A stretch of DNA of 64,000 nt from a virus. A program made the position numbers and the translations under genes. Below, piece by piece: positions 27,464 to 63,068 of the stretch. Within the stretch, counting starts at the first letter, position 1; every line of letters begins with the position of its first letter. The notes under the pieces are model-generated. The model worked only from the letters and a program-made list of their open reading frames with translations, was not told where the DNA came from and did not search any database. Where the stretch lies: UHGV virus genome UHGV-0039337, one strand, 5' to 3'.

Positions 27464-28225
27464 TCAATCATCTTCTTCAACTTCATATTCAAGCATTGCT
27501 TTATATAGTTTTTCAGGTATTATATCTCTATATTGATTAGCAACTTCTTTAATATATTTTTCTTTGAAATTTTTATAAACTTGAAATGCTTCTTCTGGTG
27601 TGTTATAGTATCCTAAAAAATTTTGCTTTTTGTCAGTATTACAATAAGCTTTATATTTTTTACTTGATTTATTATAAGATACTCCAACTGGAAAATTACC
27701 TCTATCATTATTGCGTTTTGTAAATAATTTATTTATATTTTGAGGTACAAATATACAAGTATCAGGACTGTATATTTTATTTCCTTTTATTAATATATCT
27801 TTGTCAAGATTCATTATTTGTTCTTCTATCTCATAATAATTATCTTCAAACCATTCAGCGAAATTTTGAAAATTATGCCATGGTTCATATACTTCACATT
27901 GTTCGTATGTTGGATGCTTTTGTATATATTTAGGATCATAACATCTACACAACATTCTATTCCATATGTCATAATGTTTTGTGTGTTTTCCATTTATTGA
28001 TACATTGTATCTTCCTTCACCTATATAACCGGTGTTAAAAATTGTTTTTTCATAAGGACATTTTACTCTACCGTTTATGAAATTAATATATTGCACATGT
28101 TCTTTTGTCCAGTCATATTCAGGGAAATATACATCAATATCATTATATTTTCTGTAATCGATTATAATAATTTCATTACCAAAATTATTATGATTTATTG
28201 CGCCTATAATATTTTCTTTATCCAT
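27464..28225 (-). CDS. AP2-domain DNA-binding protein (homing-endonuclease-associated type)
   Basis: C-terminal VGVSYNK..KKYKAY......FLGYYNTPEEAFQVYKNF fits the AP2/ERF pattern (G.Y.T.EEA..Y). Confidence 0.45.
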   Translation of the reverse strand: MDKENIIGAINHNNFGNEIIIIDYRKYNDIDVYFPEYDWTKEHVQYINFINGRVKCPYEKTIFNTGYIGEGRYNVSINGKHTKHYDIWNRMLCRCYDPKYIQKHPTYEQCEVYEPWHNFQNFAEWFEDNYYEIEEQIMNLDKDILIKGNKIYSPDTCIFVPQNINKLFTKRNNDRGNFPVGVSYNKSSKKYKAYCNTDKKQNFLGYYNTPEEAFQVYKNFKEKYIKEVANQYRDIIPEKLYKAMLEYEVEEDD

Positions 28226-29336
28226 TTGCTTTATCCTTTTCTTTTTTTCTATATTCTTTTATTAAATTTTTTGTATAATTAAATAGACTATTTGGATCTT
28301 TTCTTTGATATTCTACACGTGTCCATTCCATAGGTGTTCTTGAATAATAGTCTCCATATCCTCCTGGTGCAACATGACCATTGTAAACTCCCATGCCTAT
28401 TTCTGTACCATAATATAAACATATGTCACTATCATCAAAAGAAAATAACATTTCTAATGCTTTTTTAACTCTATAAATATCATGATTAAGTGATACTGCT
28501 ATTCTTGTTTGATCATGATTATCCAAGAATACAACATCGTATTTAGGATCGTTTTTGACTGTTAATGGTTCACCTGTATTTAGTGCATGTTTTATCCAAC
28601 CTGATTCTTCAAAATTAAATGCTTTTCCTATTGTTCTAGCATATTTATTAGATTCTTCATAAGTATCCCAACATTCAGCAACTAAATAAGCATCAGGTTT
28701 TATTTTATGAACCATATGACTAAACCAGCCCCAAAATTCTATTGGATCACAACCATAACTTATATATGGAACTGCGTCTAATCTAAATCCATCTACATTA
28801 TGTTCTATCCAAAATCTTACGATATTTGTTATCATATTTCTTACTTTTTGACTACTACCATTTAAAGCTGGCATACTAGCATCCCATGGAGCATAATAGA
28901 ATTTACTATTTTCATAACAATATCTCCATTTGTTATCTATTTGAGTGTCGCTCCAAAAATAACAATCATTTTCTCCTTTGATGCTCTCTCTGAATAACTT
29001 ATTATGATAATCAGTATGACATAATACTAAATCAAGAAATATTTCTATATTTTTATTATGTGCTTTAAATATAAATTTGTCAAAATCTTCCATTGTACCA
29101 TACTGTTTTTTTACTTGATAATAATTGCTAACATTATATCCATGTTCACTTGGAGAATCAAAAATAGGAGTTAGCCACAAACTGCTAACTCCTAATTCTT
29201 CTATATAATTTAACTTATCTGCTAAGTCTTTAAAGTCTGTACAAAATGCTGGTGTATAAATTTCGTATATTATTCTTCGTTTATTATTCAAAGTATCACA
29301 TCTCCTTTTAATTTTAAATCTTTTGATCAAACTCAA
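28218..29336 (-). CDS. glycoside hydrolase family 13 (alpha-amylase superfamily) catalytic domain protein
   Basis: GVSSLWLTPIF..HGY region, DLVLCH (region I-like), GFRLDAVPY (region II with catalytic Asp); no signal peptide. Confidence 0.65.
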   Translation of the reverse strand: MSLIKRFKIKRRCDTLNNKRRIIYEIYTPAFCTDFKDLADKLNYIEELGVSSLWLTPIFDSPSEHGYNVSNYYQVKKQYGTMEDFDKFIFKAHNKNIEIFLDLVLCHTDYHNKLFRESIKGENDCYFWSDTQIDNKWRYCYENSKFYYAPWDASMPALNGSSQKVRNMITNIVRFWIEHNVDGFRLDAVPYISYGCDPIEFWGWFSHMVHKIKPDAYLVAECWDTYEESNKYARTIGKAFNFEESGWIKHALNTGEPLTVKNDPKYDVVFLDNHDQTRIAVSLNHDIYRVKKALEMLFSFDDSDICLYYGTEIGMGVYNGHVAPGGYGDYYSRTPMEWTRVEYQRKDPNSLFNYTKNLIKEYRKKEKDKANG

Positions 29337-34228: not shown

Positions 34229-34819
34229 TTATATTTTTCTCATAATCATTTTAATCGCTTTAAATACAACTATACCTACTATTAAATTAATTACTATAGC
34301 TGGAAGTACAACTGATGCATATAATATAGTTAAATTCATATTTCCTGGAAGACCTACTAATATTTGTGCTGATGTTAAAAATACAAAACCACTAATCGCA
34401 GTACCAATAATCATTAATATATTTGAAACAACTAAATCTTGATTCTTTTGTGACAATTTTTTCATAAAAGGAAGCTTATATATAAACATCATAATTACAA
34501 AAATTAAATTCGTTGTAATAAATTTGTCTATAACATTTGGTACTTGACCTCCTGGAAATGAAGTTGTTATGGCTGAAAATATACCAACTACTATTCCACA
34601 TGCTAAGCAAGTTTTATAACTATCTTTATTTAATATCATAACTGTAAACAACATTATTAAAGTCATATCAGGTTTTACACCAAATATAGCAGGTTCAATC
34701 TGGTGTAAAACTAAACCTATTCCTAAAAGGACTGAATTTAAAACTAATTTTTTCGTATTCATTTTAATCTCTCCTATATTTCTCTTAATATTCTTTCTCC
34801 TATATAACAAAATAAGCAA
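34229..34819 (-). CDS. polytopic membrane protein (ECF-transporter S-component-like)
   Basis: 196 aa, 5-6 TM helices, small-residue-rich helices as in ECF substrate-capture components; homology not demonstrable by eye. Confidence 0.35.
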   Translation of the reverse strand: MLILLYRRKNIKRNIGEIKMNTKKLVLNSVLLGIGLVLHQIEPAIFGVKPDMTLIMLFTVMILNKDSYKTCLACGIVVGIFSAITTSFPGGQVPNVIDKFITTNLIFVIMMFIYKLPFMKKLSQKNQDLVVSNILMIIGTAISGFVFLTSAQILVGLPGNMNLTILYASVVLPAIVINLIVGIVVFKAIKMIMRKI

Positions 34820-37778: not shown

Positions 37779-38265
37779 AAATATTCCTCCCCCGTTATAT
37801 TCATTTAAAACTCGTTATTTCGAAGTATTTCTTGTATTATTCGTTATAAAGCTTATTTACTGCGTATTATTATTTGTACTAGCTATTTAATGCGTATGTG
37901 ATATATATATTAAAGATATTGAAAAACTGTGATATATAACCATTTATTATTGTTTAATGCATGTTTTTACAAAACGAAGCATGTAATACATAGTTTATAT
38001 ATGTTATTATCTGTTTATTAGGTATATATTAGCTGCATAGAGTAGGTGCTGCTCCAAAAATTATTAATTTTTTACTGTTTTCACAAAACAATGCTTTGTT
38101 ATCATCATAAGTAACATATTTTTTTACTTATTCTGTGTGAAAATACTCAAAAGCAGTTCAAAACTTACTCTTTTTTACTGTTTTGGGTACAAGCACCTGT
38201 TATATAGCCTCGCTTCGCTCGGCTTACTCAGTCGCCGGGGCCCCTACCCCGGCTCCTTCGTCGCC

Positions 38266-38424
38266 TTATTCATCGTCATCATCATTTTCTGATACAGTCC
38301 CTCCAAATAGCCATCCTTTTGATTCTATAAAGTCAATAAATGCATCAGTAAACTCTTCTTCTGTTACATTTTTATTTATATTTTCACTGAATATAGTGCC
38401 ATTAATAGTTATTATTTTAGCCAT
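38266..38424 (-). CDS. small acidic protein (52 aa) missed by the 60-aa track threshold
   Basis: ATG with GGAGG 8 nt upstream and the recurrent late motif; MAKIITINGTIFSEN...DDDDE*; the 38183..38479 (+) track ORF is its antisense artefact. Confidence 0.55.
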   Translation of the reverse strand: MAKIITINGTIFSENINKNVTEEEFTDAFIDFIESKGWLFGGTVSENDDDDE

Positions 38425-40718: not shown

Positions 40719-41495
40719 TTAGATTAAATCTGCTATATCAGATGCAACTTTAGGTTGTTCTTCTTCTTCTGCGCTTTCAGTTTGTCCAGCATTTGCTAAT
40801 GTTCTTGCTATCATAGATTGTAGTTTTGCTATTTTCTTTTCTAGTTTAGCTTCAACTTCTTCATCTTCTGCGTCCAATAATTCATCTTCAGCTTTTGCAA
40901 GTTTAGCTTTTAATTCTGCTACTCTAGCTTTATCTTCATCTGACATTTTAGGTTTAGAAGCTTTAGTAGTTGCTATAGCACCATTGCCTCTAACAGCATT
41001 TGCTATTTCAGCTTTTAATGCTTTCCATGCTGGGTCCACTACTTCTCTGTCTGCTTTAGACATATTTCTGTCTGCTACTAGCTCAACATTAGCATATTTA
41101 GTTGCCATTAGTTTCATGATATGAGCATATGCTTCCAATCTTTCTTTAGGCATATCTTCACCGCTAGTAACTGATTTGCCTGTTCTAATGTAGTCTATAA
41201 AAGAACCTGTTGCTATACCACTTATAACTCTAGGTAAGACAACTCTAACTGGTTTTTCTACAAGTTCATCTGTATTGTCTGGTATAGATTCTAGTAAATC
41301 TGTTAATGCTTCTATACAACTGTCTACTACTGAATCATTTTGATACATACAAGATATATCAGAACCGTTAGTACATAATACTATACCTTTTTCTCCTACT
41401 ATTGCAACAGTATTTCTTTCTATTTTTGCTTTTAATCCGTTTCCATTACCGTTACCTTTAACACTTGATAATTTAACTCCTGATAATTTAGCCAT
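40719..41495 (-). CDS. putative structural/scaffold-like protein with a C-terminal coiled coil (258 aa)
   Basis: GNGNGNG linker, ELKAKLAKAEDELLDAEDEEVEAKLEKKIAKLQ heptads. Confidence 0.35.
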   Translation of the reverse strand: MAKLSGVKLSSVKGNGNGNGLKAKIERNTVAIVGEKGIVLCTNGSDISCMYQNDSVVDSCIEALTDLLESIPDNTDELVEKPVRVVLPRVISGIATGSFIDYIRTGKSVTSGEDMPKERLEAYAHIMKLMATKYANVELVADRNMSKADREVVDPAWKALKAEIANAVRGNGAIATTKASKPKMSDEDKARVAELKAKLAKAEDELLDAEDEEVEAKLEKKIAKLQSMIARTLANAGQTESAEEEEQPKVASDIADLI

Positions 41496-41514
41496 AATAA
41501 ACCTTCCTTTCTTG

Positions 41515-41915
41515 ATAGCTCGTCGGGTACCATTTTATTTTATTTATTTTTAAACCGACTCAAACGCTAATCAATAGCACTCGTGAGTTTGCTACACAAG
41601 AGTAGACCAAATCCCATAAGTACCAAAAAAAGAGTCTTTGTTGAGCCGACAGCGCTCATGACCGCATGAGCGACAGTGACCCATAAAAGACAAAAAAATA
41701 ATCCTTGTTGTACGACAGTACATAAGGACGACAGTCCGCGACCCCGAAGGGGGACCACGGACACGGGTCTAAGACCCAATTTAAGACAAAAAAAGAATCC
41801 TTGTTGCCGACAGGCGACAAAGACAGTATAAGAATGCTGAAAAAGCTTGTGTCCGACAGGAGGGACCCCCGAAGGGGGTATAGCACTGAACAGTACTCAT
41901 AAAATATCACCCTCC
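41515..41915 (-). repeat. GC-rich non-coding element: three 27-nt direct repeats each with an adjacent hairpin, plus two cUUCGg hairpins
   Basis: Repeats at 41625-41652, 41692-41718 and 41788-41813 (A7-GARTCYTTGTTG-N-CGACAG); perfect hairpin CGCTCATG-ACCG-CATGAGCG (41653-41672); CCCCGAAGGGG at 41741-41757 and 41864-41878. Confidence 0.6.
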
Positions 41916-41920
41916 TCTTA

Positions 41921-43039
41921 CTAATACAAGCTGCTTATATCAGCAGTTGTAGCGTCTTCTACAGCTGATTTACTAGAGTTGTCAGTATTATTTGTAGCTT
42001 CATTCTTAGTTGCCACTTTTCTGTAGTATGCAGAGCTTAATTTTTCAAATTGTTCACATACTGCGTCATATAATAAGCCTACATTGTTTACTAATGTCTC
42101 AGTGTCATATCCTTTAGATGGTGTGCTTTCAAAAGGTTTTTTGCTAAAGATATAGTTATAATTTCTCCAGAATACTTCTTGGTCTCTTCTTACTATAAAA
42201 GCATGACCATTAGTATAACCTTTTGCTATTATGTCTGTATCTTTATCGCTATCAGTTGCTTCTGGTGTCAAATAGATATAAGCGCCTTGATGTAATGCTC
42301 CTAAATATTGTCTACCACTAAAACCGCCAAAATCAGGATGGTCTATTACGCTGTCATACATTGTTAATTCTTTAGGAGATATTTCTTTTACAGCATTTCT
42401 TATTAGTTCTCTAGCTTCTTTTAATGATGCTGCGCCTTCTACGCCATATACTACTGGCATGTCTAATTCATTAGACCAGTGGAAGTTTCTGATATAATTA
42501 TTTAATCTTATTTGCCCATACCATAGATGTTTATTATCCTTTCTTTTTTCTACGAATAATACAGCGTCATCTCCTTCTTGTGGTCCACATTTTATTAGTT
42601 TTTTCGCATCACTAACCTTATAGTTAGTTTTAGGAGCTTGTTTAGGTTCATTGTGGAATTTATCTGTAACTTCATATTCATCTTCTTCAAATAATTCCCA
42701 GCTGTCTCCACATTCTAAGCATACTACTTCTCCGCCTTTTCTGTATTGTTCAGTTTCTTTGTTGCAACTTCCGCAATATGATAATACTACTTGTTGTTCT
42801 TTAATGTCTTTTCCTAATATAGTATTGCTAGTTTTTGTTTCTTTAGGTTCATCTTTAGTTGTAGGTATTTCTTTAACAGTTTCAACTGGTTTAACTTCTG
42901 CTGTAGTCATTCCCATTATGTCATTTAATACTCTTAATTGTTCTTTTATATTTGCTTCTAATGCTTTGTATAATTCAACCTTAAATTCTATACCACTTTC
43001 TAATACTTTGTTCATTAAATTCATTTCAGATTTATTCAT
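41921..43039 (-). CDS. hypothetical late protein with a Cys4 zinc ribbon (372 aa)
   Basis: Late motif plus AGGAGG; CGSC...CLEC. Confidence 0.4.
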   Translation of the reverse strand: MNKSEMNLMNKVLESGIEFKVELYKALEANIKEQLRVLNDIMGMTTAEVKPVETVKEIPTTKDEPKETKTSNTILGKDIKEQQVVLSYCGSCNKETEQYRKGGEVVCLECGDSWELFEEDEYEVTDKFHNEPKQAPKTNYKVSDAKKLIKCGPQEGDDAVLFVEKRKDNKHLWYGQIRLNNYIRNFHWSNELDMPVVYGVEGAASLKEARELIRNAVKEISPKELTMYDSVIDHPDFGGFSGRQYLGALHQGAYIYLTPEATDSDKDTDIIAKGYTNGHAFIVRRDQEVFWRNYNYIFSKKPFESTPSKGYDTETLVNNVGLLYDAVCEQFEKLSSAYYRKVATKNEATNNTDNSSKSAVEDATTADISSLY

Positions 43040-43078: not shown

Positions 43079-43163
43079 TAATAAAGGGCTTTAAGGATTA
43101 ACTCTTTTAGAACCATAGTAATATAAAAAGACACCCGTATTTCTACGAGTGCCTTACGTATGT

Positions 43164-45015: not shown

Positions 45016-47199
45016 TTATAATAAACTGCTAATGTCCATGTTGCTTAAATATTCAGCTGTTTGTTGCTCGTCTTGTTTTTCTTCTGTCGCAAACATAGGA
45101 GTATTCATGTTATATTCTATTAATGCAGCGTATCCTATGTTGTTTTCTCTTACTCTTTTTCTGACTATTAAACTTGTGTAGTCATTTATTATTTCTCCGT
45201 CATAATATAATCCTGTCACTATTTTGCCATCTTCTAATACTGTAAATTCAGGATATATTACAGTCACATCATCTCCGTCAAAATCTGATCCTGCTAATTG
45301 ATGTTTAACTGTGTTGTCTTGTGCTAAGATGATACAATTATTAGGGCATTCATTTATGAATTGCATATATTCTGGAGTTATGCCTCTTACTGCTATTTCT
45401 TCAGATAGTACCATATAAAATACTTCAAACTCATTATCACCTTGAGATGGAGATTTTATTGCTGTTGCTATTCTCATATTATTTAGTACTGTGTCTTTTT
45501 CTTCTTGTGTCATTGCAACATTTGCTTCTAATTGTTCTTTCGTTTGTCTGTATTCTCTTTCGAATGCACTACTATAAACTTCTAATGCTCTAACTTTCAT
45601 AGTTTCACCTGTTGGCATTACATAGCTTACTAATTTTGATCCTAATACTTCTTTGCAGTCATTCAATAAGTGATCTTCTGGGACCATTCTTAGATAATTG
45701 GAATTGATAGAAAGTTTTAAGTTTGCAACTCTATTTAATAATGCAGTGTCAAGTTGTTTAATCTTAAAGTTGTTTAATAACTTATCTTCTTCTGCTCTTT
45801 CAGGTGCTAGGTTATAACAGTTAAAGTATGCTGTATTACTTAATCTTACAACATTATTTTCAAAACTTACTTTACCTTTAGCAGCTTCAGCTTCCACTAA
45901 TTGTCTTTCAGTAATAGCTTTTACATATTTTATTGCATCTTCTAAGTCATCACGCAATTTAAATACAATCTGAGTTCCCATGTTGCCGTTAGTTCTATTT
46001 GACATATTTACTAAGCCTATTTCCATTGGGTCTATTGTGTCTTTTTCTACAATGTATTTTCCCCATTTAAAAGTATCTTTATCTGCCATTATGTTTATCT
46101 TAGCTGCTAATTTTACTAATTCTTTATCAGATAATTTAGTTAAGTCAACTTTATGTCCATCTTCCCAGCAGTAGCATTTATTTATGTCTAGACTCATCAT
46201 CATTTTCATTGCTTTAACTTTTTGGTTTAAGTGATATGCTTTACCATGTCCTTTACCTGCTGCACCTTTTATTCTTCCTTGTATACTCATTCTTCTAGCT
46301 TGTGCTAATGATACTTTTTCTCCTGTTAGTTCGCTTACTATTTCGCTTACCATTCTATCTCCAAACACAAAGTATCCGTCTCTAAAGTTATTGTCAATGC
46401 TTTTTACTTCTGTATTTTCATCTTCAGATTGTATACTACCATTAAAGTAAAATACATTATTAGTTTTTCCAGCTTCTGTCCATAGTGTAGGAGTTGTTGC
46501 ACATAAACTTATTCTTGATGCTATACCTGCTAAACTGTCAAAGTCCATATCTCCTTTAGCTGATTCTTTTTCCAATACTTCTGCTAATAATCCTCCTGTT
46601 AGATTGTTCATAGTCTCGAATTGTAAATCAGCATCATGGTTTGTAAAATAAACTTTAGACTTTTTGCCCATAGATGCGCTACCACTAGCTGGATAGAATG
46701 TTTGTCCATAGTTGTCTAATTTTAGTCCTGACAATCTTAGATCTTCATATTTTGATTCAGCATTTTTAAATGATACTAATACTATGTTGTTGTACAATTT
46801 ATAAGCAGATTCAGTTGGACCAGTTACTACTTGTCTAGTATTTCCTTCTCTGTCTATTTTTACTTCTATTTGTTTAACTTCATTGTTTAATTCTCCAAAT
46901 GCCAACACGACTGGACTATTTCCAACTGTTTGATATCCTGTTTCAATATGTCCAACATCGTCAATGTCTACAGTTTGTACTACTATAAAGTTAGCATTTC
47001 CCATTTCATCTTCGTACATTTTGTGCATTGCTTTTCTTTGTAATCTTTCAATGTTTGCTGCACTTAAACTGTTGTTTGTTTTGCTTACGTTTTTTCTGAT
47101 TCCTTTAAAATTATTAGTAGTAGATTTAGTCATAATGACCTCCTTTGCCCACGTATTAGCCAATACGCAGGACTTTGTGTTACTGCACTTCTTTACCAT
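45016..47199 (-). CDS. 727-aa protein with a DFDGDD motif (candidate non-canonical RNA polymerase subunit / double-psi beta-barrel protein)
   Basis: LAGSDFDGDDVTV at 45268-45291, about 80 aa from the C-terminus, resembling the NADFDGD catalytic loop of multisubunit RNAP beta-prime; the rest is unassignable by eye. Confidence 0.25.
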   Translation of the reverse strand: MVKKCSNTKSCVLANTWAKEVIMTKSTTNNFKGIRKNVSKTNNSLSAANIERLQRKAMHKMYEDEMGNANFIVVQTVDIDDVGHIETGYQTVGNSPVVLAFGELNNEVKQIEVKIDREGNTRQVVTGPTESAYKLYNNIVLVSFKNAESKYEDLRLSGLKLDNYGQTFYPASGSASMGKKSKVYFTNHDADLQFETMNNLTGGLLAEVLEKESAKGDMDFDSLAGIASRISLCATTPTLWTEAGKTNNVFYFNGSIQSEDENTEVKSIDNNFRDGYFVFGDRMVSEIVSELTGEKVSLAQARRMSIQGRIKGAAGKGHGKAYHLNQKVKAMKMMMSLDINKCYCWEDGHKVDLTKLSDKELVKLAAKINIMADKDTFKWGKYIVEKDTIDPMEIGLVNMSNRTNGNMGTQIVFKLRDDLEDAIKYVKAITERQLVEAEAAKGKVSFENNVVRLSNTAYFNCYNLAPERAEEDKLLNNFKIKQLDTALLNRVANLKLSINSNYLRMVPEDHLLNDCKEVLGSKLVSYVMPTGETMKVRALEVYSSAFEREYRQTKEQLEANVAMTQEEKDTVLNNMRIATAIKSPSQGDNEFEVFYMVLSEEIAVRGITPEYMQFINECPNNCIILAQDNTVKHQLAGSDFDGDDVTVIYPEFTVLEDGKIVTGLYYDGEIINDYTSLIVRKRVRENNIGYAALIEYNMNTPMFATEEKQDEQQTAEYLSNMDISSLL

Positions 47200-54503: not shown

Positions 54504-55076
54504 ATGACAAACATAGATATTATAAAAGAATATACACAAAACGGAAAAGAAATACCACAAGATAAATTAGATTATTTAACCAGTAATAAAAGACTTAAAG
54601 GTTACATAGGACCTAGACAGTGTGGAAAAACTTATTTATTGTATCAAGATTTAATAAGTAATGCCTTTACTAATCCAGGTGATTATCTCGTTATAGCTCC
54701 AAACTTTCCAGTACTAAGAATCATTCAACAGCATATTGAAAAATGCCTTAAGGAATTTTTATTAGATTTTGAATATGTTAGTGTGTCACCTAGTCGTACT
54801 ATTAAAAAAATACAAAATGGTTCTACCGTTACATTTATTTCTAATTCTAGCAGAATGGAAGCTGAATATCTTATGCGTGAAAGAAGGAATTATAAAGCTG
54901 TATATATAGATGAGCCCAGAGCTATTAATAGTATATTTAATATGATCGATTTATTAAAATCCAGTATTGCACAAGAATGTGGTTATATATCAGTCTTTGG
55001 TACTATTAATAAAGAATTTGCAGAAGAATTAAAAAGCATAGGCTTTAAATTAATATATAATACAAAGGTAGCATAA
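54504..55076 (+). CDS. small P-loop ATPase translationally coupled to terL (possible small terminase subunit)
   Basis: Walker A GPRQCGKT and Walker B VYIDEP; its TAA overlaps the terL ATG (TAATG); position equivalent to gp16 in T4-like head modules. Confidence 0.4.
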   Translation: MTNIDIIKEYTQNGKEIPQDKLDYLTSNKRLKGYIGPRQCGKTYLLYQDLISNAFTNPGDYLVIAPNFPVLRIIQQHIEKCLKEFLLDFEYVSVSPSRTIKKIQNGSTVTFISNSSRMEAEYLMRERRNYKAVYIDEPRAINSIFNMIDLLKSSIAQECGYISVFGTINKEFAEELKSIGFKLIYNTKVA

Positions 55077-56845
55077 TGAGTTATAATAAAGCAGATCAAG
55101 TTAAGCTCGCTAAAATTATGAAAGACCCGGTAGCATGGGCACAGGCATTTCTTAGAACTTTTAATCCTCAAACTGGAAAAATAGAACCATGGAAAGCTAG
55201 ATGGTATCAGGTAGAAATGTTATCCGATAAAAGCAAAAGACGTGTTTATAGATGTGGACGTCGTACAGGAAAATGTATTCCTGGTTGGGCAGAAGTTATA
55301 GATTATAAAACAGGTGAAAGGGTTACTGCAGAAGAACTATATAAAAGAGGAAGAGCTAATGTAGTTACATTAAATGAAAATTATACAATTGGCAAAAACT
55401 TTACAAATCAAATATGGGATAATGGTGATAAAGAGGTTTATAGAGTTACTACTAAAACAGGTAGATATATAGATGCTACAGGGAATCATCCGTTGTTTAC
55501 AGTTAATGGATGGGTCCAAATTGATGATTTAAAATCTGGTGACAAAATAGGTATACCATCTCATTTAAATTACTGGGGCAATGAAAATATTCCCGATAAT
55601 GAAGTAAAATTATTAGCATATATGATAGGAGATGGAAATTGCACTAGCAATACGATTAGGTTTAGTGCAAACGACAATTATCCGAAAATAAAAAGAGAAA
55701 TGAAATCTATATGTGCATACTATGATTGTCAATTAAAACAATATGAATATAATTCTAATTGCGATTATAATATAGTAAAAATTGATAAAAACATTAATAG
55801 TAAATCTATTAAAAATAATATTAAAGAAGTGTTAATTGATAATGATATTTTCGGAAAGTCAGCAAAAGAAAAAAGAATACCTGATAAAATATTTAGATCC
55901 AATAAAAGGGCAGCGAGTATATTTCTATCTAGATTGTATGCTACAGATGGCTGGGTATCATATAAAACAAAAAATAAATTACAGGCTGAAATAGGATACT
56001 GTACTACAAGTGAGTTATTAGCTAGAGATATACAACACTTACTTCTTAAATTTGGAATAAATTCTTATCTTAAAACAAAAAACGTAAAATATAAAGACTC
56101 TATTAATAGAGCTTATACAGTAACTATTTATGCTAGAGAAGATTTAATTAGATTCATTAATAGTATAGATATATACGGGAAAAAACAAAAGACGAATGAA
56201 TTGTATAAATTATTGGTTAAGTCGAAAAAATCTACAAAACATATACCTAAAGATATATTAATGTTTGTGGAAGAAGAAAGAGTAAAACAGGGACTAAAGA
56301 AAAAAGACTTATGTTTAAACCATAACGATAGAATAAGATACAATAGTGATGTATCAAAAGAAAAGCTATTACATTACGGAAAAGTATTAAAGAATGATGA
56401 TTTAATAGATTTAGCTAATGGTGAAATAATTTATGATGAAATAGTGTCAATAGAATATATAGGAATCTATAAAACATACGATATATCTATTCCAATGACG
56501 TTTAACTTTGTTGTCAATGATTTCATAACGCATAATACTGAGACCATGGTTGTTGAATCATTATTTCATGTATGTACTAAAAGAAACTTTAGGGTACTTA
56601 TAGTAACGCCATATGAAACGCAAGTAAGGCTTGCTTTTATGAGACTTAATGAATTAATTCAGGAATCTCCTGTTGTTAATTCTATGGTAGTAACTAATAC
56701 TAAGAATCCTTATATGATTAAATTAAGTAATGACAGTGCCATATTAGGGTTTACTACTGGAGCGTCTTCAGGTGGTGGAGCAGCCAGTGTCAGAGGTCAA
56801 CGTGCTGACTTAATAGTAATGGACGAAGTCGATTTCGGTACAAGT
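55076..56845 (+). CDS. terL: terminase large subunit, exon 1 (ATPase domain) containing an in-frame intein
   Basis: WKARWYQVEML...RRVYRCGRRTGK / TETMVVESLFHVC... aligns with T4 gp17 (DYQKDML...CNLSRQLGKT TVVAIFLAHFVC); Walker B ADLIVMDEVDF matches gp17 FAMIYIEDCAF. The 3' coordinate is the approximate 5' splice site. Confidence 0.85.
55274..56536 (+). other. intein (421 aa) with a LAGLIDADG homing-endonuclease domain, inserted in the terL Walker A P-loop between GK and T
   Basis: Begins with Cys (CIPGWAEV), has a TxxH-type block B (GNHPLF), LAGLIDADG motifs LAYMIGDGN and LSRLYATDGW, ends ...VVNDFITHN followed by Thr+1; removing it restores GRRTGKT. Confidence 0.8.
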
Positions 56846-57974
56846 GGATTATATATGCATATACTATATTAAAAATATAGTATAGGATGTGATAAATTGG
56901 TTAATAATATTAAGTTTGCAGAACTTTTCGGTTTTATGCTAGGAGATGGCTGGTTATCTTTACATGATAACAGTAAAGGTTCTTTATGTTATAATTGTGG
57001 TTTTTCCGGAGATGAAGAATCATTGCAAAATGTTATTAATGATTTAAAAGCTTTATTTGGGGAAAACATAGGCACTGCCAGAGTTAGAACATACAGTACT
57101 TCTTCAGATAAATATAATATAAAAGGTTCTACAACAGAAGTATCTCTTAATACAAAAATAGCAAAAACATTTTTGCAGTATGGTATGCCAATAGGAAAAA
57201 GAGTAGAACAAGATTACAGCATTCCAGATTGGATTCTAAATGGAGCTTTAGAAATAAAAATAGCTTTTATTTCAGGAATTTATGCAGCAGAAGGATATAC
57301 TCCAAAAATGCAATCAAATAATAAAAGTCCTAGAGTATTGGGTTTTAATATGAGTAAAAGAAAAACTATAGGATGTTCAAATCTTGTAAAACAATTTTCA
57401 AAAATTTTAGACGATATAGGAATTGAATATAACGTAAAAATAGAAGAAGTATTTACCAAAGACTTGAATGAAAAATTTAGATTTGAATTTTGTAATAGTA
57501 CAGAGAACGTTTTTTATATAAGTTCCATATTAAAACTAAATTATTGTATAAAGAAACAGCAAAAAATGTTATTGCTTAATGAATATATAAAATATAAATT
57601 ATCAATTTTAAATAATCCTTTGAGTGAAAAATATAATCCAAATGCTCGAACAAAAAGAAAATGTTCTAATTTAAAAACTTTTGACGAGTATGTGGTTGAC
57701 TTAAAACTCCGTTAAACGGGGAAAGCTTAACTGCTAATCCCGTACCAAGCTTTAATAGTAATATTAAAGTAGCGTCTAACGACTAGAGGTGAGACCGCAT
57801 ATACGGTCAATAAAATCCTCCACGAAAGCGGGGCACTGTCTAATAGTCTTATCGTCCAAAAAATATTCTATTAGATTAAAGATATAGTCTAGCCTGGGTT
57901 GGAAATGACCAACCGATGAAAATGAGGGAAACCTCCAGAGGGTAAGATAAAGAACTTACCGTTAACAACAAGCG
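56846..57974 (+). mobile_element. group I intron (about 1.1 kb) splitting terL; the core lies downstream of the embedded HEG
   Basis: Exon reading frame breaks after DEVDFG and resumes at ...YMSEADFDSV. Intron 3' region contains group I R/S-like elements ...CGACTAGAGG... and ...AAGATATAGTCTAG... (P7 pairing GACTA/TAGTC) and is GC-elevated. Boundaries are approximate. Confidence 0.65.
56897..57715 (+). CDS. LAGLIDADG homing endonuclease encoded within the terL group I intron
   Basis: Two LAGLIDADG motifs (FGFMLGDGWLS and ISGIYAAEGY); TTG start with AGGATGTGA RBS. Confidence 0.75.
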   Translation: MVNNIKFAELFGFMLGDGWLSLHDNSKGSLCYNCGFSGDEESLQNVINDLKALFGENIGTARVRTYSTSSDKYNIKGSTTEVSLNTKIAKTFLQYGMPIGKRVEQDYSIPDWILNGALEIKIAFISGIYAAEGYTPKMQSNNKSPRVLGFNMSKRKTIGCSNLVKQFSKILDDIGIEYNVKIEEVFTKDLNEKFRFEFCNSTENVFYISSILKLNYCIKKQQKMLLLNEYIKYKLSILNNPLSEKYNPNARTKRKCSNLKTFDEYVVDLKLR

Positions 57975-59249
57975 TATATGAGTGAAGCAGACTTTGACTC
58001 TGTTATGATAATAGCTGGTGAACGTCCTGAAATACGTACTGTTATGAGTTCGACTCCTACTGGAAAACGTTCTAAATTTTATCAAGCATGTACAGATCCA
58101 GCTATGGGCTTTAAAGAGCATTTTCATCCTTCTACTCATAATCCAAACTGGAATGACGAAATGGAAGCAGAATTTAGAGCGCAGTTATCTGAACAAGGTT
58201 ATGTTCATGAAGTTGAAGCTGAATTTGGTGTACAAAATACAGGTGTATTTGATAAAGATAGAGTCGACGAAGCTAAAGAATTTTATAATTATGCATATGC
58301 TCCTCTTAACTATTATCAAGAAAATGCAATTAAACATGGAGACATAGCACCACCAGACATGCTACTTTATGATAGAAAAAATCCTGCACCATATAACAGA
58401 TTTAGAACTATTGGAGTAGACTTTGATAAGTATCAAGATACTAGTAGTATTATAGTTTTAGAATTTAACGAAACTTTTAAGAAATTCATGGTATTAAAAG
58501 CATATAACATACCACGTTCTGAATATAGCTATGATATGGCTGTTAAAACTATAATAGAACTTAATTATATATATAATCCAGCAAGAATATATTGTGACAG
58601 AGGAAATGGTGAATACCAAATAGAACAGCTATGTATTTATGGAAAAGAACATCCAGAAACAAGATTACATGAAAAAGTCAAAGGTTATCAATTTTCTCAA
58701 AAGCTTGACATAGAAAATCCTGTTACAGGTGAAATAACAAAAGAACCTATTAAACCATTTATGGTAACTCAATTACAAATAGCTTTTGAAAGAAATCAGT
58801 TAATTATATCCAAATATGATGAAAAGTTTTATAAACAGTTAATAGATTATGAAGTAGTTAATAGAGCGAAAAATGGTAATCCTATTTTTTCTGATACTAA
58901 TGAACATTTTATTGATGCATTAGGATTAGCATATTTAGCTATGACTCTTACTTTTAAACAGTTAACTGGAGTAATGAAAGAAAGAGAAGTAGCTAATAAA
59001 ATAATGATGAGTGCGCGTCATTTAATATCAAATGAAAAGGCTATTAATGCTATTAATAGATCTCAAGAAATTAAACCTGAGATACAAAGTTTTTATGAGA
59101 ATTATCAAAAAGACGAACATCCAGATGAACAACAAAGATGGGTCAAAACTGATTTTAGTACTTATTTTAAAGGTAATGATGATTATAGAGGCGGAAGATC
59201 ATCTTCTGCATGGTCACGTTCTGGTGGCCTAGGGGGATGGAAAAGATAA
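57975..59249 (+). CDS. terL: terminase large subunit, exon 2 (ATPase motif III plus C-terminal nuclease domain)
   Basis: MSSTPTGKRSKFY aligns with gp17 ITTTPNGLNHFY; downstream acidic nuclease-domain residues; reading frame is open from 57966. Confidence 0.8.
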   Translation, partial: YMSEADFDSVMIIAGERPEIRTVMSSTPTGKRSKFYQACTDPAMGFKEHFHPSTHNPNWNDEMEAEFRAQLSEQGYVHEVEAEFGVQNTGVFDKDRVDEAKEFYNYAYAPLNYYQENAIKHGDIAPPDMLLYDRKNPAPYNRFRTIGVDFDKYQDTSSIIVLEFNETFKKFMVLKAYNIPRSEYSYDMAVKTIIELNYIYNPARIYCDRGNGEYQIEQLCIYGKEHPETRLHEKVKGYQFSQKLDIENPVTGEITKEPIKPFMVTQLQIAFERNQLIISKYDEKFYKQLIDYEVVNRAKNGNPIFSDTNEHFIDALGLAYLAMTLTFKQLTGVMKEREVANKIMMSARHLISNEKAINAINRSQEIKPEIQSFYENYQKDEHPDEQQRWVKTDFSTYFKGNDDYRGGRSSSAWSRSGGLGGWKR

Positions 59250-59271: not shown

Positions 59272-60663
59272 ATGAGTAAGCAACGTATTGATTATAGACC
59301 TAATATTAAATACATTCCTGATTATCAAACAGATGGAATAAACATTAACGAACAAAATATAGATATTAGCACGCAAAAAAATAAACAACCGTTAGATACG
59401 CAATCAGTACCAGAAATAGAAGATAATATATCATATTTAGATTCAATAATCAAATTCTTACCTGCAGATTTATCTATGGCCATAAAAGAAGTATATGATC
59501 CTGTACGTGATATATTTTATAATACACTAATAGATAAAATAGTAGATCCTAATCCTCATAAACCTGAAATAATAATAAAACCAGATAAACCTCCTGACGG
59601 AGGAGGAGATAAACCTAGCAAGCCGCCAGGTGGAGGAGATAAGCCAGGGTCAGATGATAATAAAAATATTGTGCATCCTATAATTTTACGTCCTATCAAA
59701 GGTAATGATAAAGATGATGACGATCATGATGATGACAATAAAAGCATTTATCCAATTATTCTTCATCCAATAAATCTAAAAGATCCTGATAAAGATCCTG
59801 ATCCTGGACAAAAGCCTGATGAAGATAATAAAGATAAAGCTATATATCCTATTATATTAAAGCCCATATTAGATAGCACTACAAATCCTGACGATGACAA
59901 TGATAATGATAATATCGAATCGCCATATCCAATAATATTGTATCCTATTTATGAATATACAGATGATGACAATGATGATAACAATAAAAAAGACGATAAT
60001 AATAAAGATAACGATAATGACGATGACAATGATGATGAAGACGATGAAGGAGATATTGGCTTATGGGATCCTCCAAATATAAAAATTAAGTATCTGTATC
60101 CTGAACTAAATGATGCAATTGATAGAGAATTTGTATATCTGTTAACTAAATTACTTAAGCATTATACAGGTAAGTTAAAAGATATTCTTAACAACTATTA
60201 TTTTAATACTATGAGACAGTATATTGAACAAGACGAAGAAAATATTAAATTTATATCTAATAAGCTAAAAGTAACAAGTAATGATATATTGAACCATTCA
60301 AAACACTTATTAGATTCATCAGTTAAAAATGAAAATGTTGCAGCGTTAAGAACGGAATTTTTTATAAATGTTTTTACTATAAGAGATACGGCAATTCATA
60401 TTAGAAGCTTTTACGTTTCTCATGAGCTACGTAAACGTTATACAAATATTAAGTATTCAAAGGGAAAAAGTATGGCTAATTCTATGAGCGATTCTATTCT
60501 TACAAAACTTCATGCACAATATGAATTGCAATATAGAAGAGACTTTGAGAATCTGTTTAGATATTTAGAGTCTTCTTTAAAAGTAACTGAAGATATATTA
60601 AGATTGTACATACAAGATGGATTAAGTAAATCCACAATCATTAAGAAGGGCGGTATTAAATAA
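59272..60663 (+). CDS. 463-aa protein with five tandem (I/Y)YPIILxPI repeats separated by D/N/K-rich linkers
   Basis: GGAGGTGAG RBS; repeats IVHPIILRPI, IYPIILHPI, IYPIILKPI, PYPIILYPI. Confidence 0.5.
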   Translation: MSKQRIDYRPNIKYIPDYQTDGININEQNIDISTQKNKQPLDTQSVPEIEDNISYLDSIIKFLPADLSMAIKEVYDPVRDIFYNTLIDKIVDPNPHKPEIIIKPDKPPDGGGDKPSKPPGGGDKPGSDDNKNIVHPIILRPIKGNDKDDDDHDDDNKSIYPIILHPINLKDPDKDPDPGQKPDEDNKDKAIYPIILKPILDSTTNPDDDNDNDNIESPYPIILYPIYEYTDDDNDDNNKKDDNNKDNDNDDDNDDEDDEGDIGLWDPPNIKIKYLYPELNDAIDREFVYLLTKLLKHYTGKLKDILNNYYFNTMRQYIEQDEENIKFISNKLKVTSNDILNHSKHLLDSSVKNENVAALRTEFFINVFTIRDTAIHIRSFYVSHELRKRYTNIKYSKGKSMANSMSDSILTKLHAQYELQYRRDFENLFRYLESSLKVTEDILRLYIQDGLSKSTIIKKGGIK

Positions 60664-60977
60664 TGAAATTAGAACCATTAGGAGATAATATTATAATTGA
60701 ATTAGATGAAATTAAAAAAAGTAAAGAGAAAACATTAAAATCAGGTTTGATAATTCCACCAGCAAATATATCAGATCAAGAAGCACGACAAGATATGGCT
60801 ACTGTTGTAGCAGTCGGTGAGGGACGAATGCTAAACAATGGTAGATTAATACCTTTAAAAGTAAAACCTGGAAGCAGAGTTTTATTTAATAAATATGCTG
60901 GTACTCAATTAGTTAAAGATGATAAAACATACTTAATATTAAAAGAATGTGATATATTAGCTATTATAAAAGACTAA
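60663..60977 (+). CDS. groES: GroES-type co-chaperonin (Cpn10 / T4 gp31 functional analogue)
   Basis: Full-length alignment to GroES: MKLEPLGDNIIIE, SGLIIP, mobile-loop region, VVAVGEGR, GSRVLFNKYAGT, DILAII. Confidence 0.8.
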   Translation: MKLEPLGDNIIIELDEIKKSKEKTLKSGLIIPPANISDQEARQDMATVVAVGEGRMLNNGRLIPLKVKPGSRVLFNKYAGTQLVKDDKTYLILKECDILAIIKD

Positions 60978-60995: not shown

Positions 60996-63068
60996 ATGTT
61001 CAAATTACCTTGGCGACAAAACACCTCTAATAACTTACCTTTAAAAGAGTCTGATATTCAATTACCAAAAAAAAGATCTACCATTAGTGATTTAATAATG
61101 AAAATTAAAGCCGTTGGTTATATAAACAATAATACGTATAGACGTGAAAAGTTTCAAAGATGTGAATATAATCTTTCTGAAATTAGAGATGCTAGTGAAG
61201 CAGATTCATATGTGAAAATAGCATTAACTAAATATTCGTATATGATTTATAAAGCAGGTTGGACACTTAAAAGTGAAAATCAAGAGGCTATTGATTATAT
61301 CTTATATAGATGGCGTTTAATGTCTTATCAAACAGATAAACCTATGGATATATTGTTTCAAGAATTAGCTGATGATTTAGTTCGCTATTCTAATGCTTTT
61401 TTAATTAAAGCTAGGGTAGATAGAATGCCTCCTAGTTGTAAAGTTAAAGCTTCTGGAACGGATTCTACAGGAAGACCGGTTGGTGGATATTTTAGAGTAG
61501 ATCCTTCAAGTGTTAAAATAAAAAGAGATAAACATGGAAATATTTTAAAATACGAACAAGGTCGTGGACAAGATAAAAAACAATGGAGTAAAGAAGACGT
61601 AATACATATTTATATGGACAAAGATGGAAATAATGCATACGGTACTCCTAGAATAATAGCAGCACTTGATGATGTTAAATTGTTAAGAAAAATAGAAGGT
61701 AATATGGTTGCTTTGATCCATAGATTTAGTATGCCGCTTTATCATTGGAAAATAGGTATTCCACAAGCTGGATTTCAAGCTTCTGATCCTGAAATTCAAA
61801 AAGCTAAAAGAGAAATAGAAGGCAGTTCACTTGATGGCTTAATTATTACAAATGAAAAAACTGAAATAAAAGCTATAGGATCTGAAGGTTCAGCTATGAA
61901 TATGGCTCCTTATCTTGAATATCTAGAAAATAGAGTATTTAGTGCACTTGGAGTATCTGCTTCTCAAATGGGTAGAGGTGGAGCTAAGCAAGATGCAGAT
62001 AGTATGGAACAACAAATACATGATACTGTTAAATATATTCAAAGAATGCTTTCTAAGTTCATAGAACATGGAATAATAAATGAACTATTAGCAGAAGGAG
62101 GATTTGATATATTTGATCCTAAAAACGAAGTTCAATATGTATTTGAAGAAATATCTCTTGAAACTAAAATCAAGAAAGAAAATCACGAAATGCTTAAATG
62201 GCAATCTAATGTTACTACTTTTGAAGAAGGTAGACGTAGAATGGGATTACGTGATGTTCCTGAAGATGAAGAAAGATTATTCCAACGTATGATTTCTGAT
62301 AAGTCTAGTATAGATCAAATAGACAGAAATGGTGAATGGCAAGAAAAACTTGCTCATATAAATGTAGCAAGTAAAGCAGCTAATTCATCATCTAATGGTA
62401 CATCTACTAGTAAATCGAAAGCGAGAAATACATCTGGAAAAAAGCAACCTAATAAAGCGGCTACAAATAATAATAGACCACAGAATCAACACGGTACTAC
62501 TAGCGTAAAAGTTAAAGAATCAGTTGACTCTGACCATAATACAAGTTTATTGTATAGAATTTATTATAACATACCAGAGCTTAATGAGCATAATACAAAA
62601 AATTATCAGATGATTTTATTTAATGAAATTGAAAGAATTATAAATACAACAGCTTTAGAAGCTATGAATGATGCAATAATAGAAATAAATAGTAGTTATG
62701 ATGATGATTATTACTGTTTACCTAATCTAAACATAAATCATTCATCAATCAACAAAAACTTAAAAGACGATATAGCTTATTTATTAAATTGTATTAAAGA
62801 AGAATCAAAAAGCAATAAAAATATAAATGATTGCTTGCTAAATAATTCATCTATGCTTGGCGATATAGTTAACTATTATTGTCAAAAAATATACAATTAT
62901 TCTTTTATTCAAACAGGTAAATATATAGATGTAAATACTATCTATATCAAATTAAATAATTCTAATAAATTTAAAGAAGCTAATGTTGATGATTTTACAT
63001 TAGCATCAATGTTTGATTCAGCATATGACAATTGCGTGTTAACTTACGACAAAAGTGAGGTGAGATAA
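60996..63068 (+). CDS. probable portal protein (690 aa)
   Basis: AAGGAGG RBS; size and position immediately after terL/groES; homology not verifiable by eye. Confidence 0.4.
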   Translation: MFKLPWRQNTSNNLPLKESDIQLPKKRSTISDLIMKIKAVGYINNNTYRREKFQRCEYNLSEIRDASEADSYVKIALTKYSYMIYKAGWTLKSENQEAIDYILYRWRLMSYQTDKPMDILFQELADDLVRYSNAFLIKARVDRMPPSCKVKASGTDSTGRPVGGYFRVDPSSVKIKRDKHGNILKYEQGRGQDKKQWSKEDVIHIYMDKDGNNAYGTPRIIAALDDVKLLRKIEGNMVALIHRFSMPLYHWKIGIPQAGFQASDPEIQKAKREIEGSSLDGLIITNEKTEIKAIGSEGSAMNMAPYLEYLENRVFSALGVSASQMGRGGAKQDADSMEQQIHDTVKYIQRMLSKFIEHGIINELLAEGGFDIFDPKNEVQYVFEEISLETKIKKENHEMLKWQSNVTTFEEGRRRMGLRDVPEDEERLFQRMISDKSSIDQIDRNGEWQEKLAHINVASKAANSSSNGTSTSKSKARNTSGKKQPNKAATNNNRPQNQHGTTSVKVKESVDSDHNTSLLYRIYYNIPELNEHNTKNYQMILFNEIERIINTTALEAMNDAIIEINSSYDDDYYCLPNLNINHSSINKNLKDDIAYLLNCIKEESKSNKNINDCLLNNSSMLGDIVNYYCQKIYNYSFIQTGKYIDVNTIYIKLNNSNKFKEANVDDFTLASMFDSAYDNCVLTYDKSEVR

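Follow-up and report, generated by a model that had tools for sequence, protein, structure and literature searches.

Several described systems resemble the element that is the subject of this report. CsrB and RsmZ RNAs titrate CsrA. The targets of ANTAR proteins carry hexaloops in which position 1 is A and position 4 is G, and EutX is a sponge RNA that titrates the ANTAR protein EutV (PMC8934654). The YonO late operon of SPbeta begins, in the gene-free stretch between yonN and yonK, ahead of a non-coding RNA that has no annotation (PMC5467207). The element described here occupies positions 41496-41920 of a 64,000-nucleotide stretch (the window) of the virus genome UHGV-0039337, where 425 nucleotides (nt) without a gene separate two minus-strand open reading frames (ORFs). 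It is a previously undescribed, conserved structured RNA on the minus strand, confined to a single clade of gut jumbo phages, in which an array of hairpins shows one loop, CUG(U/C)CG, on differing stems. For its function we tentatively propose, with somewhat less than even confidence, that the hairpin array would be read through its loops and act as a regulated terminator or insulator of transcription.

The GC content of the window is 28.0%, rising to 44.6% at 41515-41915 and 47.5% in the core (41600-41900), and the interval folds better than its shuffled versions (z-score -5.1 for the minus and -6.8 for the plus strand), with a minimum free energy (MFE) of -143.4 kcal/mol on the minus versus -124.2 kcal/mol on the plus strand. 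The GC-rich and highly structured intergenic stretch noticed in an initial annotation, which a model had made from the letters of the sequence, is thus confirmed. All genes neighbouring the array lie on the minus strand, in the same sense as the array itself, whose first structure begins 3 nt past the upstream stop codon. ARAGORN reported no tRNA or tmRNA, Rfam 15 gave 0 matches over the whole window at gathering thresholds, and a permissive Rfam scan of 41400-42000 returned only chance matches below threshold, the best being NsiR4 at 22.3 bits (threshold 40) on the plus strand. Neither the region nor its flanks had a BLAST match in INPHARED (GenBank phages), and a literature search for CUGUCG yielded nothing relevant.

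The downstream gene, which encodes a protein of 258 amino acids (aa), gave access to relatives of the locus. It has 58 homologues in metagenome assemblies, mostly from the human gut, on contigs of up to 270 kb. The exact protein of the window occurs on contigs of the 0.2-1 Mb class, and the source is therefore a jumbo phage; one relative's 104-kb contig was binned as a Clostridium sp. metagenome-assembled genome, a weak hint that the host is possibly Clostridium. The comparison set consisted of 15 distinct relative loci with 47-96% protein identity, making 16 loci with the window. All 15 relatives have a GC-enriched interval of 400-550 nt upstream of the orthologous gene with three to seven sense-strand copies of CUG(U/C)CG each, so that the repeats pointed out in the initial annotation are conserved, within the same architecture, in every one of them. 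Across the 16 loci, CUGYCG occurs 88 times in sense and 0 times in antisense inside the elements, at a rate of 9.8 per kb; the flanks, with 7 copies on the two strands of about 83 kb, have 0.042 per strand-kb, a difference of about 230-fold. Pattern scans of IMG/VR with the 20-mer tail, with hairpin-CAAGGAYT-GGGTC and with a double CTGTCG-CAAGGAY gave no true matches among those listed, which were single chance matches, mostly in high-GC coding DNA and without stems or clusters; IMG/VR scans with single proteins found nothing.

The loop is the invariant part of these hairpins and the stem is the variable part, a division that had been missed in the initial annotation, as had an invariant box and a leader helix that is separate and covaries. 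When 67 distinct CUGYCG instances were aligned, the loop read CUG(U/C)CG in 67/67, while the flanking stems differed but remained complementary (gug/cac, gca/ugc, gcg/cgc, ggg/ccc, cuccuc/gaggag, gaaug/cauuc). The pair beside the C-G closure is GC in 38 instances, CG in 12, AU in 9 and unpaired in 6, with similar figures for the next two pairs, and each of the three pairs beside the closure is GC, CG, AU or UA in 45-61 of the 67 instances. Overall, 72.9% of the apical stem cells are paired versus 53% in shuffles (0/500 as good) and 22-52% in slid controls, in counts that take paralogous and related sequences as independent and whose shuffle figures are not probabilities. It is the slid-partner controls and the variety of stem sequences that make the CUGYCG hairpin secure. 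The basal helix of the modules covaries as well (AAGGAU/GUCCUU and AAAGAC/GUCUUU, with GUACCC or AUACCC pairing GGGU(A) in relative L006), and five close relatives show compensatory change in 20 of 97 consensus pairs. A mimic of the tRNA-Asp or tRNA-Gly anticodon loop (CUGUCG, CUGCCG) was considered and rejected, since the loop that the covarying pair closes has 6 nt at most instead of 7.

The leader helix, downstream of the array, has 86.8% of its cells paired in 12 loci, with 7 pairs changed on both sides, 0/500 shuffles as good and slid controls at 19-47%; here too, as for the basal helix, related sequences count as independent and the shuffle figure is no probability. The box, CACGAGUGCUA, follows the last module, is invariant in 12/12 aligned relatives and unique in the window, and the 5' arm of its hairpin is variable yet still complementary to it.

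UNCG tetraloops closed by C-G stabilise RNA, and in the relatives the loop of the clamp hairpin between modules 1 and 2 is UUCG or UCCG, closed by C-G. The sense strand folds better than the antisense strand in 15/15 loci, by 0.4-52.6 kcal/mol and with more G-U pairs, and the basal helices contain G-U pairs. The UNCG-only variation of the clamps, the U-tracts, the G-U pairs and the folding advantage of the sense strand indicate an RNA read in gene direction. As such, the structured non-coding RNA on the leftward strand that was one of the candidates in the initial annotation is borne out by covarying stems, a strand-locked motif and sense folding. The parts of the element and the two genes that flank it are given here in the direction of reading.

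41921-43039, minus strand: upstream gene, a 372-aa ORF with the stop codon TAG at 41921-41923
41496-41920, minus strand: whole structured element (array and leader of the downstream gene), marked by the gene-free GC peak and the MFE and conserved in 15 relatives
41859-41917, minus strand: 5' helix, GGAGGG (41910-41915, within GAGGAGGG at 41910-41917) pairing with CCCUCC (41859-41864)
41854-41859, minus strand: CUGUCG loop 1, in the hairpin UCC-UGUC-GGA
41787-41824, minus strand: module 1, hairpin 41797-41824 and tail UCUUUUUUUG (41787-41796)
41765-41777, minus strand: small hairpin GGGUC-UUA-GACCC, with which module 2 begins
41734-41762, minus strand: clamp hairpin GUCCGUGG-U-CCCC-UUCG-GGGG-UCGCGGAC with a C(UUCG)G tetraloop, between modules 1 and 2
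41726-41737, minus strand: hairpin A of module 2, GGAC-UGUC-GUCC, with CUGUCG loop 3 at 41729-41734
41691-41729, minus strand: module 2, hairpin 41701-41729 and tail UAUUUUUUUG (41691-41700)
41623-41691, minus strand: module 3, long hairpin 41634-41691 closed by GUCUUU/AAAGAC, and tail UCUUUUUUUGG (41623-41633)
41574-41625, minus strand: box hairpin, its 3' arm being the invariant box CACGAGUGCUAU (41574-41585)
41516-41569, minus strand: leader helix, UAGC (41566-41569) with GCUA (41516-41519) and GUCGG (41555-41559) with CCGAC (41522-41526)
41502-41513, minus strand: ribosome-binding site AAGAAAGGAAGG ahead of the ATG of the 258-aa gene, in which AAGAAAGGAG is nearly invariant
40719-41495, minus strand: downstream gene, a 258-aa ORF with its ATG at 41493-41495

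The 5' helix encloses CAGUGCUAUA and a first clamp hairpin, CCCCC-UUC-GGGGG (41866-41878), and its partners in relatives are GGGG/CCCC, GGAGG/CCUCC and GUGGG/CCCAC. At the position of loop 1, relatives have ACC-UGUC-GGU, a compensatory change. The module 1 hairpin, GUCUUUGU-C-GCC-UGUC-GGC-A-ACAAGGAU, shows CUGUCG loop 2 at 41808-41813, contains a repeat copy and folds at -13.0 kcal/mol (z-score -3.7). That of module 2, GUCCUU-AU-GUAC-UGUC-GUAC-AAC-AAGGAU (-10.1 kcal/mol), likewise contains a repeat copy and shows loop 4 at 41713-41718; the 3' arm (GUCC) of the preceding hairpin A overlaps the 5' base of this terminator-like stem, and in L005 and L008 hairpin A has the compensatory variant GGGC/GCCC. 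In module 3 (-26.8 kcal/mol, z-score -5.3), an 8-bp hairpin at 41653-41672 stands between CUGUCG 5 (41671-41676) and CUGUCG 6 (41647-41652), and the basal pairs have compensatory changes in relatives (alignment columns 244/304 and 245/303). The leader helix encloses an A/U-rich loop that ends in AAAUGGU. A possible promoter, TTGTGT-N17-TG-n-TATTGA, which is our own reading of the letters and was not called by the promoter scan, overlaps the box hairpin.

Several of the motifs reported in the initial annotation could be placed within these structures. The three direct repeats, described there as 27 nt long, are real and form a 31-nt family, D1 (41613-41643, 41680-41710 and 41776-41806), whose members are 77-87% identical and unequally spaced, at 67 and 96 nt. 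A search of the 64-kb window with the minus-strand pattern CAACAAGGATTNTTTTTTTG, allowing up to 3 mismatches, gave 3 matches with 0-2 mismatches against 0.09 expected, all of them in the array and none outside it. The two C4-UUCG-G4 hairpins were recovered as CCCCTTCGGGG, found twice (41742-41752 and 41867-41877) against 0.01 expected, and the perfect 8-bp hairpin as CGCUCAUG-CGGU-CAUGAGCG on the minus strand (41653-41672). CGACAG, thought to recur about 8 times, was counted 6 times as CGACAG/CUGUCG in the region; these are 6 of the 9 CUGUCG copies of the window, and all 6 lie on the minus strand. The placing of CUGUCG in the loop of a hairpin in each repeat proved right for four of the six, which form the tips of simple hairpins that have 2-4 further pairs after the C-G closure, but not for the other two, which flank the 8-bp hairpin in module 3.

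In the three modules of the window the hairpin stands directly (0-1 nt) before UUCUUUUUUU, UUAUUUUUUU or UCUUUUUUU, tails with at least 7 U, which is the geometry of an intrinsic terminator. A module is made up of a basal helix, one or two apical hairpins or internal loops showing C-UGUC-G, often a C(UNCG)G clamp, a U-rich tail, and, at a constant spacing of some 25 nt, a GGGUC that opens the next module. The basal helix has the consensus GUCYUU(G)/(C)AARGAY, with the versions GUCUUUGU/ACAAGGAU, GUCCUU/AAGGAU and GUCUUU/AAAGAC in the window. There are three modules in the window and two to four in the relatives, and the array is built through tandem duplication of one module. The hairpins tend to alternate between a type A, after which there is no CAAG, and a type B, which is followed after 2-6 nt by CAAGGAYU and a U-rich stretch; pairs of A then B occur in most loci, in the window at 41734/41718 and 41676/41652. 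When 44 instances were anchored on CAAG the consensus was caaCAAGGA.U.uuuu.Uug, with a GGGUC-like match downstream in 20/44, at 24-26 nt in 14 of these 20. A U-rich stretch (at least 6 of 8) lies within 35 nt in 29 of the 46 hairpins that precede CAAR.

An insulator or attenuator is proposed because the loops lie inside terminator-shaped hairpins between co-directional genes. A sequence-specific RNA-binding factor, probably a protein of the phage or of the host, would recognise the identical loops on their differing stems, and the array would form a multi-step transcription insulator or attenuator between an upstream block, with the gene of a putative beta-prime/RdRP-like polymerase, and a downstream block. 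Binding of the factor would set the extent of stop versus read-through, or the lifetime of the upstream message, and the downstream 258-aa gene would rely on a start region of its own and on a protective 5' stem-loop. The use of UUCG where stability suffices, yet of UGUC at 3-7 hairpins per locus down to 47% identity, implies a reader specific to the loop, which would most simply be a protein. If the proposal is correct, the array would represent a new class of RNA motif, C-UGUC-G-capped hairpins in terminator-shaped tandem modules, with clean comparative support that points to a matching RNA-binding factor. It would also offer an entry point to how the phages of this clade, uncultured jumbo phages of the human gut that probably encode a non-canonical RNA polymerase themselves, keep their transcription units apart or time them.

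There are also a number of points that weigh against this proposal. RNA ends, termination and read-through at the array are all inferred from the sequence, and a simple terminator scan flagged none of the three modules, as their stems have internal loops. In a group of relatives with about 50% identity (L011, L017 and L018), the hairpins and CAAGGAC are kept and the tails are only UUUU or UUUG, none reaching 6 U. Since the tails decay and the UGUC-capped hairpins persist, the deepest conserved feature is the UGUC-capped hairpin and not the terminator, and termination may not be the conserved function. Of the triple terminator array suggested in the initial annotation, the shape therefore stands in the window, with a hairpin and U-tract three times over, but the U-tracts weaken in distant relatives. 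Hairpin A and the terminator base exclude each other in module 2 of the window, whereas L008 fits both in one closed junction. Moreover, A-C mismatches exceed G-U pairs in the short apical stems (15 versus 7), so that the strand assignment rests on the other evidence given above. The 36 window ORFs that were compared with Pfam or PHROGs showed no recognisable RNA-binding or antiterminator domain and no candidate loop binder. Of the flanking proteins, the 258-aa product has a weak RNase H-like match only and the 372-aa product nothing. The AlphaFold model of the former (predicted local distance difference test 73) has an N-terminal alpha/beta domain, with weak matches to RNase H-like folds (Foldseek against PDB and BFVD, E about 1e-3 to 1e-4; template-modelling score 0.4-0.55 relative to the target), and an acidic C-terminal coiled coil; the conserved DEDD catalytic acidic set was not obvious in the family when the alignment was inspected by eye, with no formal test. 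The predicted structure of the 372-aa product gave no fold match, its sequence has only a zinc-ribbon-like segment that is not conserved, and PDB sequence searches with the flanking proteins were empty.

Among the other explanations, a trans-acting sponge or decoy survives best, although we regard it as doubtful. Here one or more stable small RNAs would end at the U-tracts, and their UGUC loops would titrate an RNA-binding protein or a nuclease, of the host or of the phage. Three to seven copies of one loop on variable stems, in numbers that vary among relatives, are in keeping with a sponge, the UNCG clamps and terminator-like 3' ends fit a stable RNA, and the hairpins persist where U-tracts decay. 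In L027, a promoter-like TTAACA-N16-AATAAT lies about 50 nt ahead of the first hairpin; in the window, the gap that separates the upstream stop codon from the first hairpin shows no evident promoter. For a sponge with a terminator-type motif there is a precedent in EutX (PMC8934654). However, the place of the array just upstream of one gene is fixed in all relatives, as is more typical of a cis element, and the search of the window ORFs gave no partner protein. A phage-made decoy that soaks up a host regulator, a defence nuclease or a phage regulator during infection is possible at about one chance in four; it would be the first sponge RNA of the CsrB or EutX style described in a jumbo phage and would bring a new code of hairpin-protein recognition. 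ACAAGGAU, present in many modules, matches ACARGGAU, which we take to be the core selected for CsrA by systematic evolution of ligands by exponential enrichment. The CsrA version of the sponge nevertheless fails: GGA is not conserved and is absent from every module in L006 (AAGUA, AAACA, AAAUA), L026 (AAGAC) and L027 (AAAGA).

It is improbable that a single ancestral terminator was duplicated into a passive series of intrinsic terminators or stabilisers of the 3' end, in which loop and tail are kept by mere inheritance. This explanation draws on the three consecutive hairpin-U7 units between co-directional genes, on their paralogy (77-87% identity over 31 nt), and on the separate start region and leader of the next gene that follow them. 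Inheritance, however, fails to explain compensated divergence of stems around an invariant loop in 88 copies, down to 47% identity. A nearby terminator (43128-43155) has an unrelated loop, and distant relatives keep the loop and lose the U-tract.

Slightly less probable again are pause, termination or start signals for a non-canonical polymerase of the phage itself. Such a polymerase is probably encoded two genes upstream of the array, at 45016-47199 on the minus strand, where a 727-aa ORF with a DFDGD motif matches the Pfam family RdRP (PF05183, E 3e-6, above the family cut-off). The catalytic loop of RNA polymerases of the double-psi-beta-barrel type is present in the ORF as GSDFDGDD. The 727-aa protein showed no BLASTP similarity to YonO of SPbeta, no tblastn match in GenBank phages and no PDB sequence match. 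The 24-26 nt spacing between CAAGGA and GGGUC and the invariant box resemble signals of this kind, and the late operon of SPbeta YonO starts in a long non-coding stretch (PMC5467207). The array motifs, though, do not recur elsewhere in the 64 kb as such signals should, no similarity to YonO or to the non-coding region of SPbeta is detectable, and nearby genes use a different leader motif. If correct, the polymerase explanation would provide the first defined stop or pause signals for a single-chain phage polymerase of the YonO or RdRP type.

The leader motif just mentioned lies upstream of the minus-strand gene starts at 43039, 40534, 39255 and 38424. It consists of an A/T-rich stretch, AAUAGUC, a loop of 4-5 nt (GAGA, GCGA, UUUG or CUUGU), GACUU(U)AAA, 3-7 nt and GGAGG, forms a small 5' hairpin beside the ribosome-binding site, and is probably a promoter or leader type shared within the phage. 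As general phage promoters, CACGAGTGCTA, AGTGCTAY and TAWATGGTR were set aside, since the window shows no enrichment for them. Another GC-rich stretch that is palindromic (GGAGCCGGGGUAGGGGCCCCGGCGAC...GCCGAGCGAAGCGAGGCU) comes right after a stop codon at about 38200-38285 on the minus strand; past it, at 37779-38200, the DNA is AT-rich and lacks a long ORF over about 480 nt.

An element that acts as DNA, whether origin iterons, a cluster of primase sites or a pac site, is very improbable. Direct repeats are present, GTC occurs 20 times in 425 nt on one strand (a 10-fold enrichment), and portal and terminase genes lie 13-20 kb away, but the compensatory stems, the asymmetric fixed loop, the UNCG variation, the U-tracts and the folding asymmetry indicate single-stranded RNA. 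Sites bound in duplex form would conserve sequence, not complementarity, and a protein that binds DNA as a dimer would leave a constant, asymmetric core of 4-6 nt with changing complementary arms unexplained. The origin-iteron and pac candidates of the initial annotation are dropped on these grounds and because all 88 copies share one orientation; nor does the GC skew, which it had proposed to check, show a switch, the cumulative skew having no sign change or inflection. A cluster of T7-type primase sites (GGGTC, TGGTC, GTGTC) was set aside as a by-product of the RNA motifs.

The terminase large subunit gene appears to be in pieces at 54504-59249 on the plus strand, with Terminase_6N at 54504-55076 and the C-terminal part at 57978-59249. 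Within it are an intein with LAGLIDADG (55076-56872) and a free-standing LAGLIDADG ORF (56897-57715), which suggests an intein and a possible intron or homing-endonuclease insertion. The portal gene (60996-63068) lies just downstream of a Cpn10/GroES co-chaperonin gene at 60663-60977 on the plus strand (E 1e-24).

Mechanical ORFs do exist in the interval, namely the two ORF-track calls at 41567-41779 and 41656-41910, which the initial annotation took for probable artefacts, and the 39-codon Cys-rich ORF at 41781-41900, to which it assigned a perfect AGGAGG-N8-ATG start; the measured gap is 10 nt. AGGAGG is one strand of a helix, pairing with CCCUCC, and its partner changes in step in relatives. 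In L005, which is 93% identical, a 1-nt deletion shifts the frame of the 39-codon ORF, and the ORFs of relatives range from 2 to 141 codons in all three frames relative to the first hairpin, with none in L011 and L018. Public assemblies call genes of 117-182 aa over orthologous arrays (annotated ORFs at L008 2535-2942, L009 2380-2928, L023 2498-2866, L024 2553-2942, L025 2522-2947 and L027 2514-2867). Their Cys/Pro/Arg/Gly-rich products are conserved only where the hairpins are, and they are probably false calls, through which gene callers mis-annotate the array region as proteins. A protein-coding or decayed gene is therefore the least credible explanation of all, because frame, start and length are not conserved, and in A-poor sequence chance alone can be expected to give open frames, such as those of 100-141 codons across the array of several relatives.

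Elsewhere in the window, a complete ISL3-family transposase (20325-21632, minus strand; DDE_Tnp_ISL3, E 6e-61) marks an insertion sequence inside the phage genome, which could be a clue to the identity of the host. Two genes are of auxiliary type: an alpha-amylase catalytic domain at 28218-29336 on the minus strand (E 2e-54), and a TrpP tryptophan transporter at 34229-34819 on the minus strand (E 6e-51).

Among known systems, a CRISPR array was rejected from the repeats and spacers themselves, on the grounds that the repeats are only 77-87% identical, the spacing is 67 and 96 nt, and the "spacers" are conserved hairpins shared with relatives. ToxI, CptI and the pseudo-ToxI of phages, which belong to mobile elements of gut Firmicutes, are similar in that tandem RNA repeats and then a terminator directly precede a protein gene. 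In contrast to ToxI and CptI, the repeats of the array are diverged and unequally spaced. In contrast to type III toxin-antitoxin systems generally, the downstream 258-aa protein has RNase H-like fold matches only, together with a coiled coil, and no ToxN/AbiQ fold, in an analysis in which no annotation of the PADLOC type was sought.

The yonN-yonK stretch of SPbeta (NC_001884, L167; 59153-60833) is gene-free over 1.68 kb, with 40-47% GC and several UUCG-type hairpins, and its only Rfam match is DUF3800-VIII RNA (47.5 bits). Like the array, it is a GC-enriched, gene-free and hairpin-rich stretch a few genes downstream of a non-canonical double-psi-beta-barrel polymerase and on the same strand. 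The two share no similarity in sequence or motif, and the stretch in SPbeta is longer (1.68 kb vs 0.43 kb).

CsrB, RsmY and RsmZ share with the array many short hairpins or linkers with one motif, a variable copy number and a terminator end. They differ in that the GGA segment of the array covaries with the basal 5' arm and so is a helix strand, not a displayed GGA, and in that the invariant motif of the array is the UGUC loop.

Tandem Rho-independent terminators and the lambda pR'-6S-tR' region are likewise units of a hairpin and U-tract between co-directional phage genes, and the lambda type also resembles the array as a short transcription unit that is non-coding and precedes a block of downstream genes. 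In lambda nut/boxB, a hairpin loop is the recognition site for a phage factor (boxB for N), as proposed for the array. No boxA or boxB sequence and no N- or Q-like protein was recognised in the window. Unlike tandem terminators and lambda leaders, the array has three paralogous units and an invariant loop.

The targets of ANTAR proteins come closest. Like the array, they have short hairpins in pairs, whose six-base loop is conserved and whose stems vary, tied to an intrinsic terminator, in several units per locus; furthermore, hairpin A of module 2 in the window competes with the terminator base, as in the eut leaders of E. faecalis. An antiterminator switch of the ANTAR kind is only partly consistent with the array, given that the folds exclude each other in module 2 and not in L008, and exclusive folding is not consistent across the relatives. 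The loop itself differs, being C-U-G-U-C-G with C at position 1 and U/C at position 4 (67/67), in which C-G probably closes a UGUC tetraloop, and hairpin B is the apex of the terminator, not its competitor. No ANTAR domain was found among the window ORFs scanned with Pfam and PHROGs. To summarise, the nearest known architecture is the ANTAR dual-hexaloop and terminator unit together with EutX, and the array, although not a member of that class, may perhaps work in a similar way.

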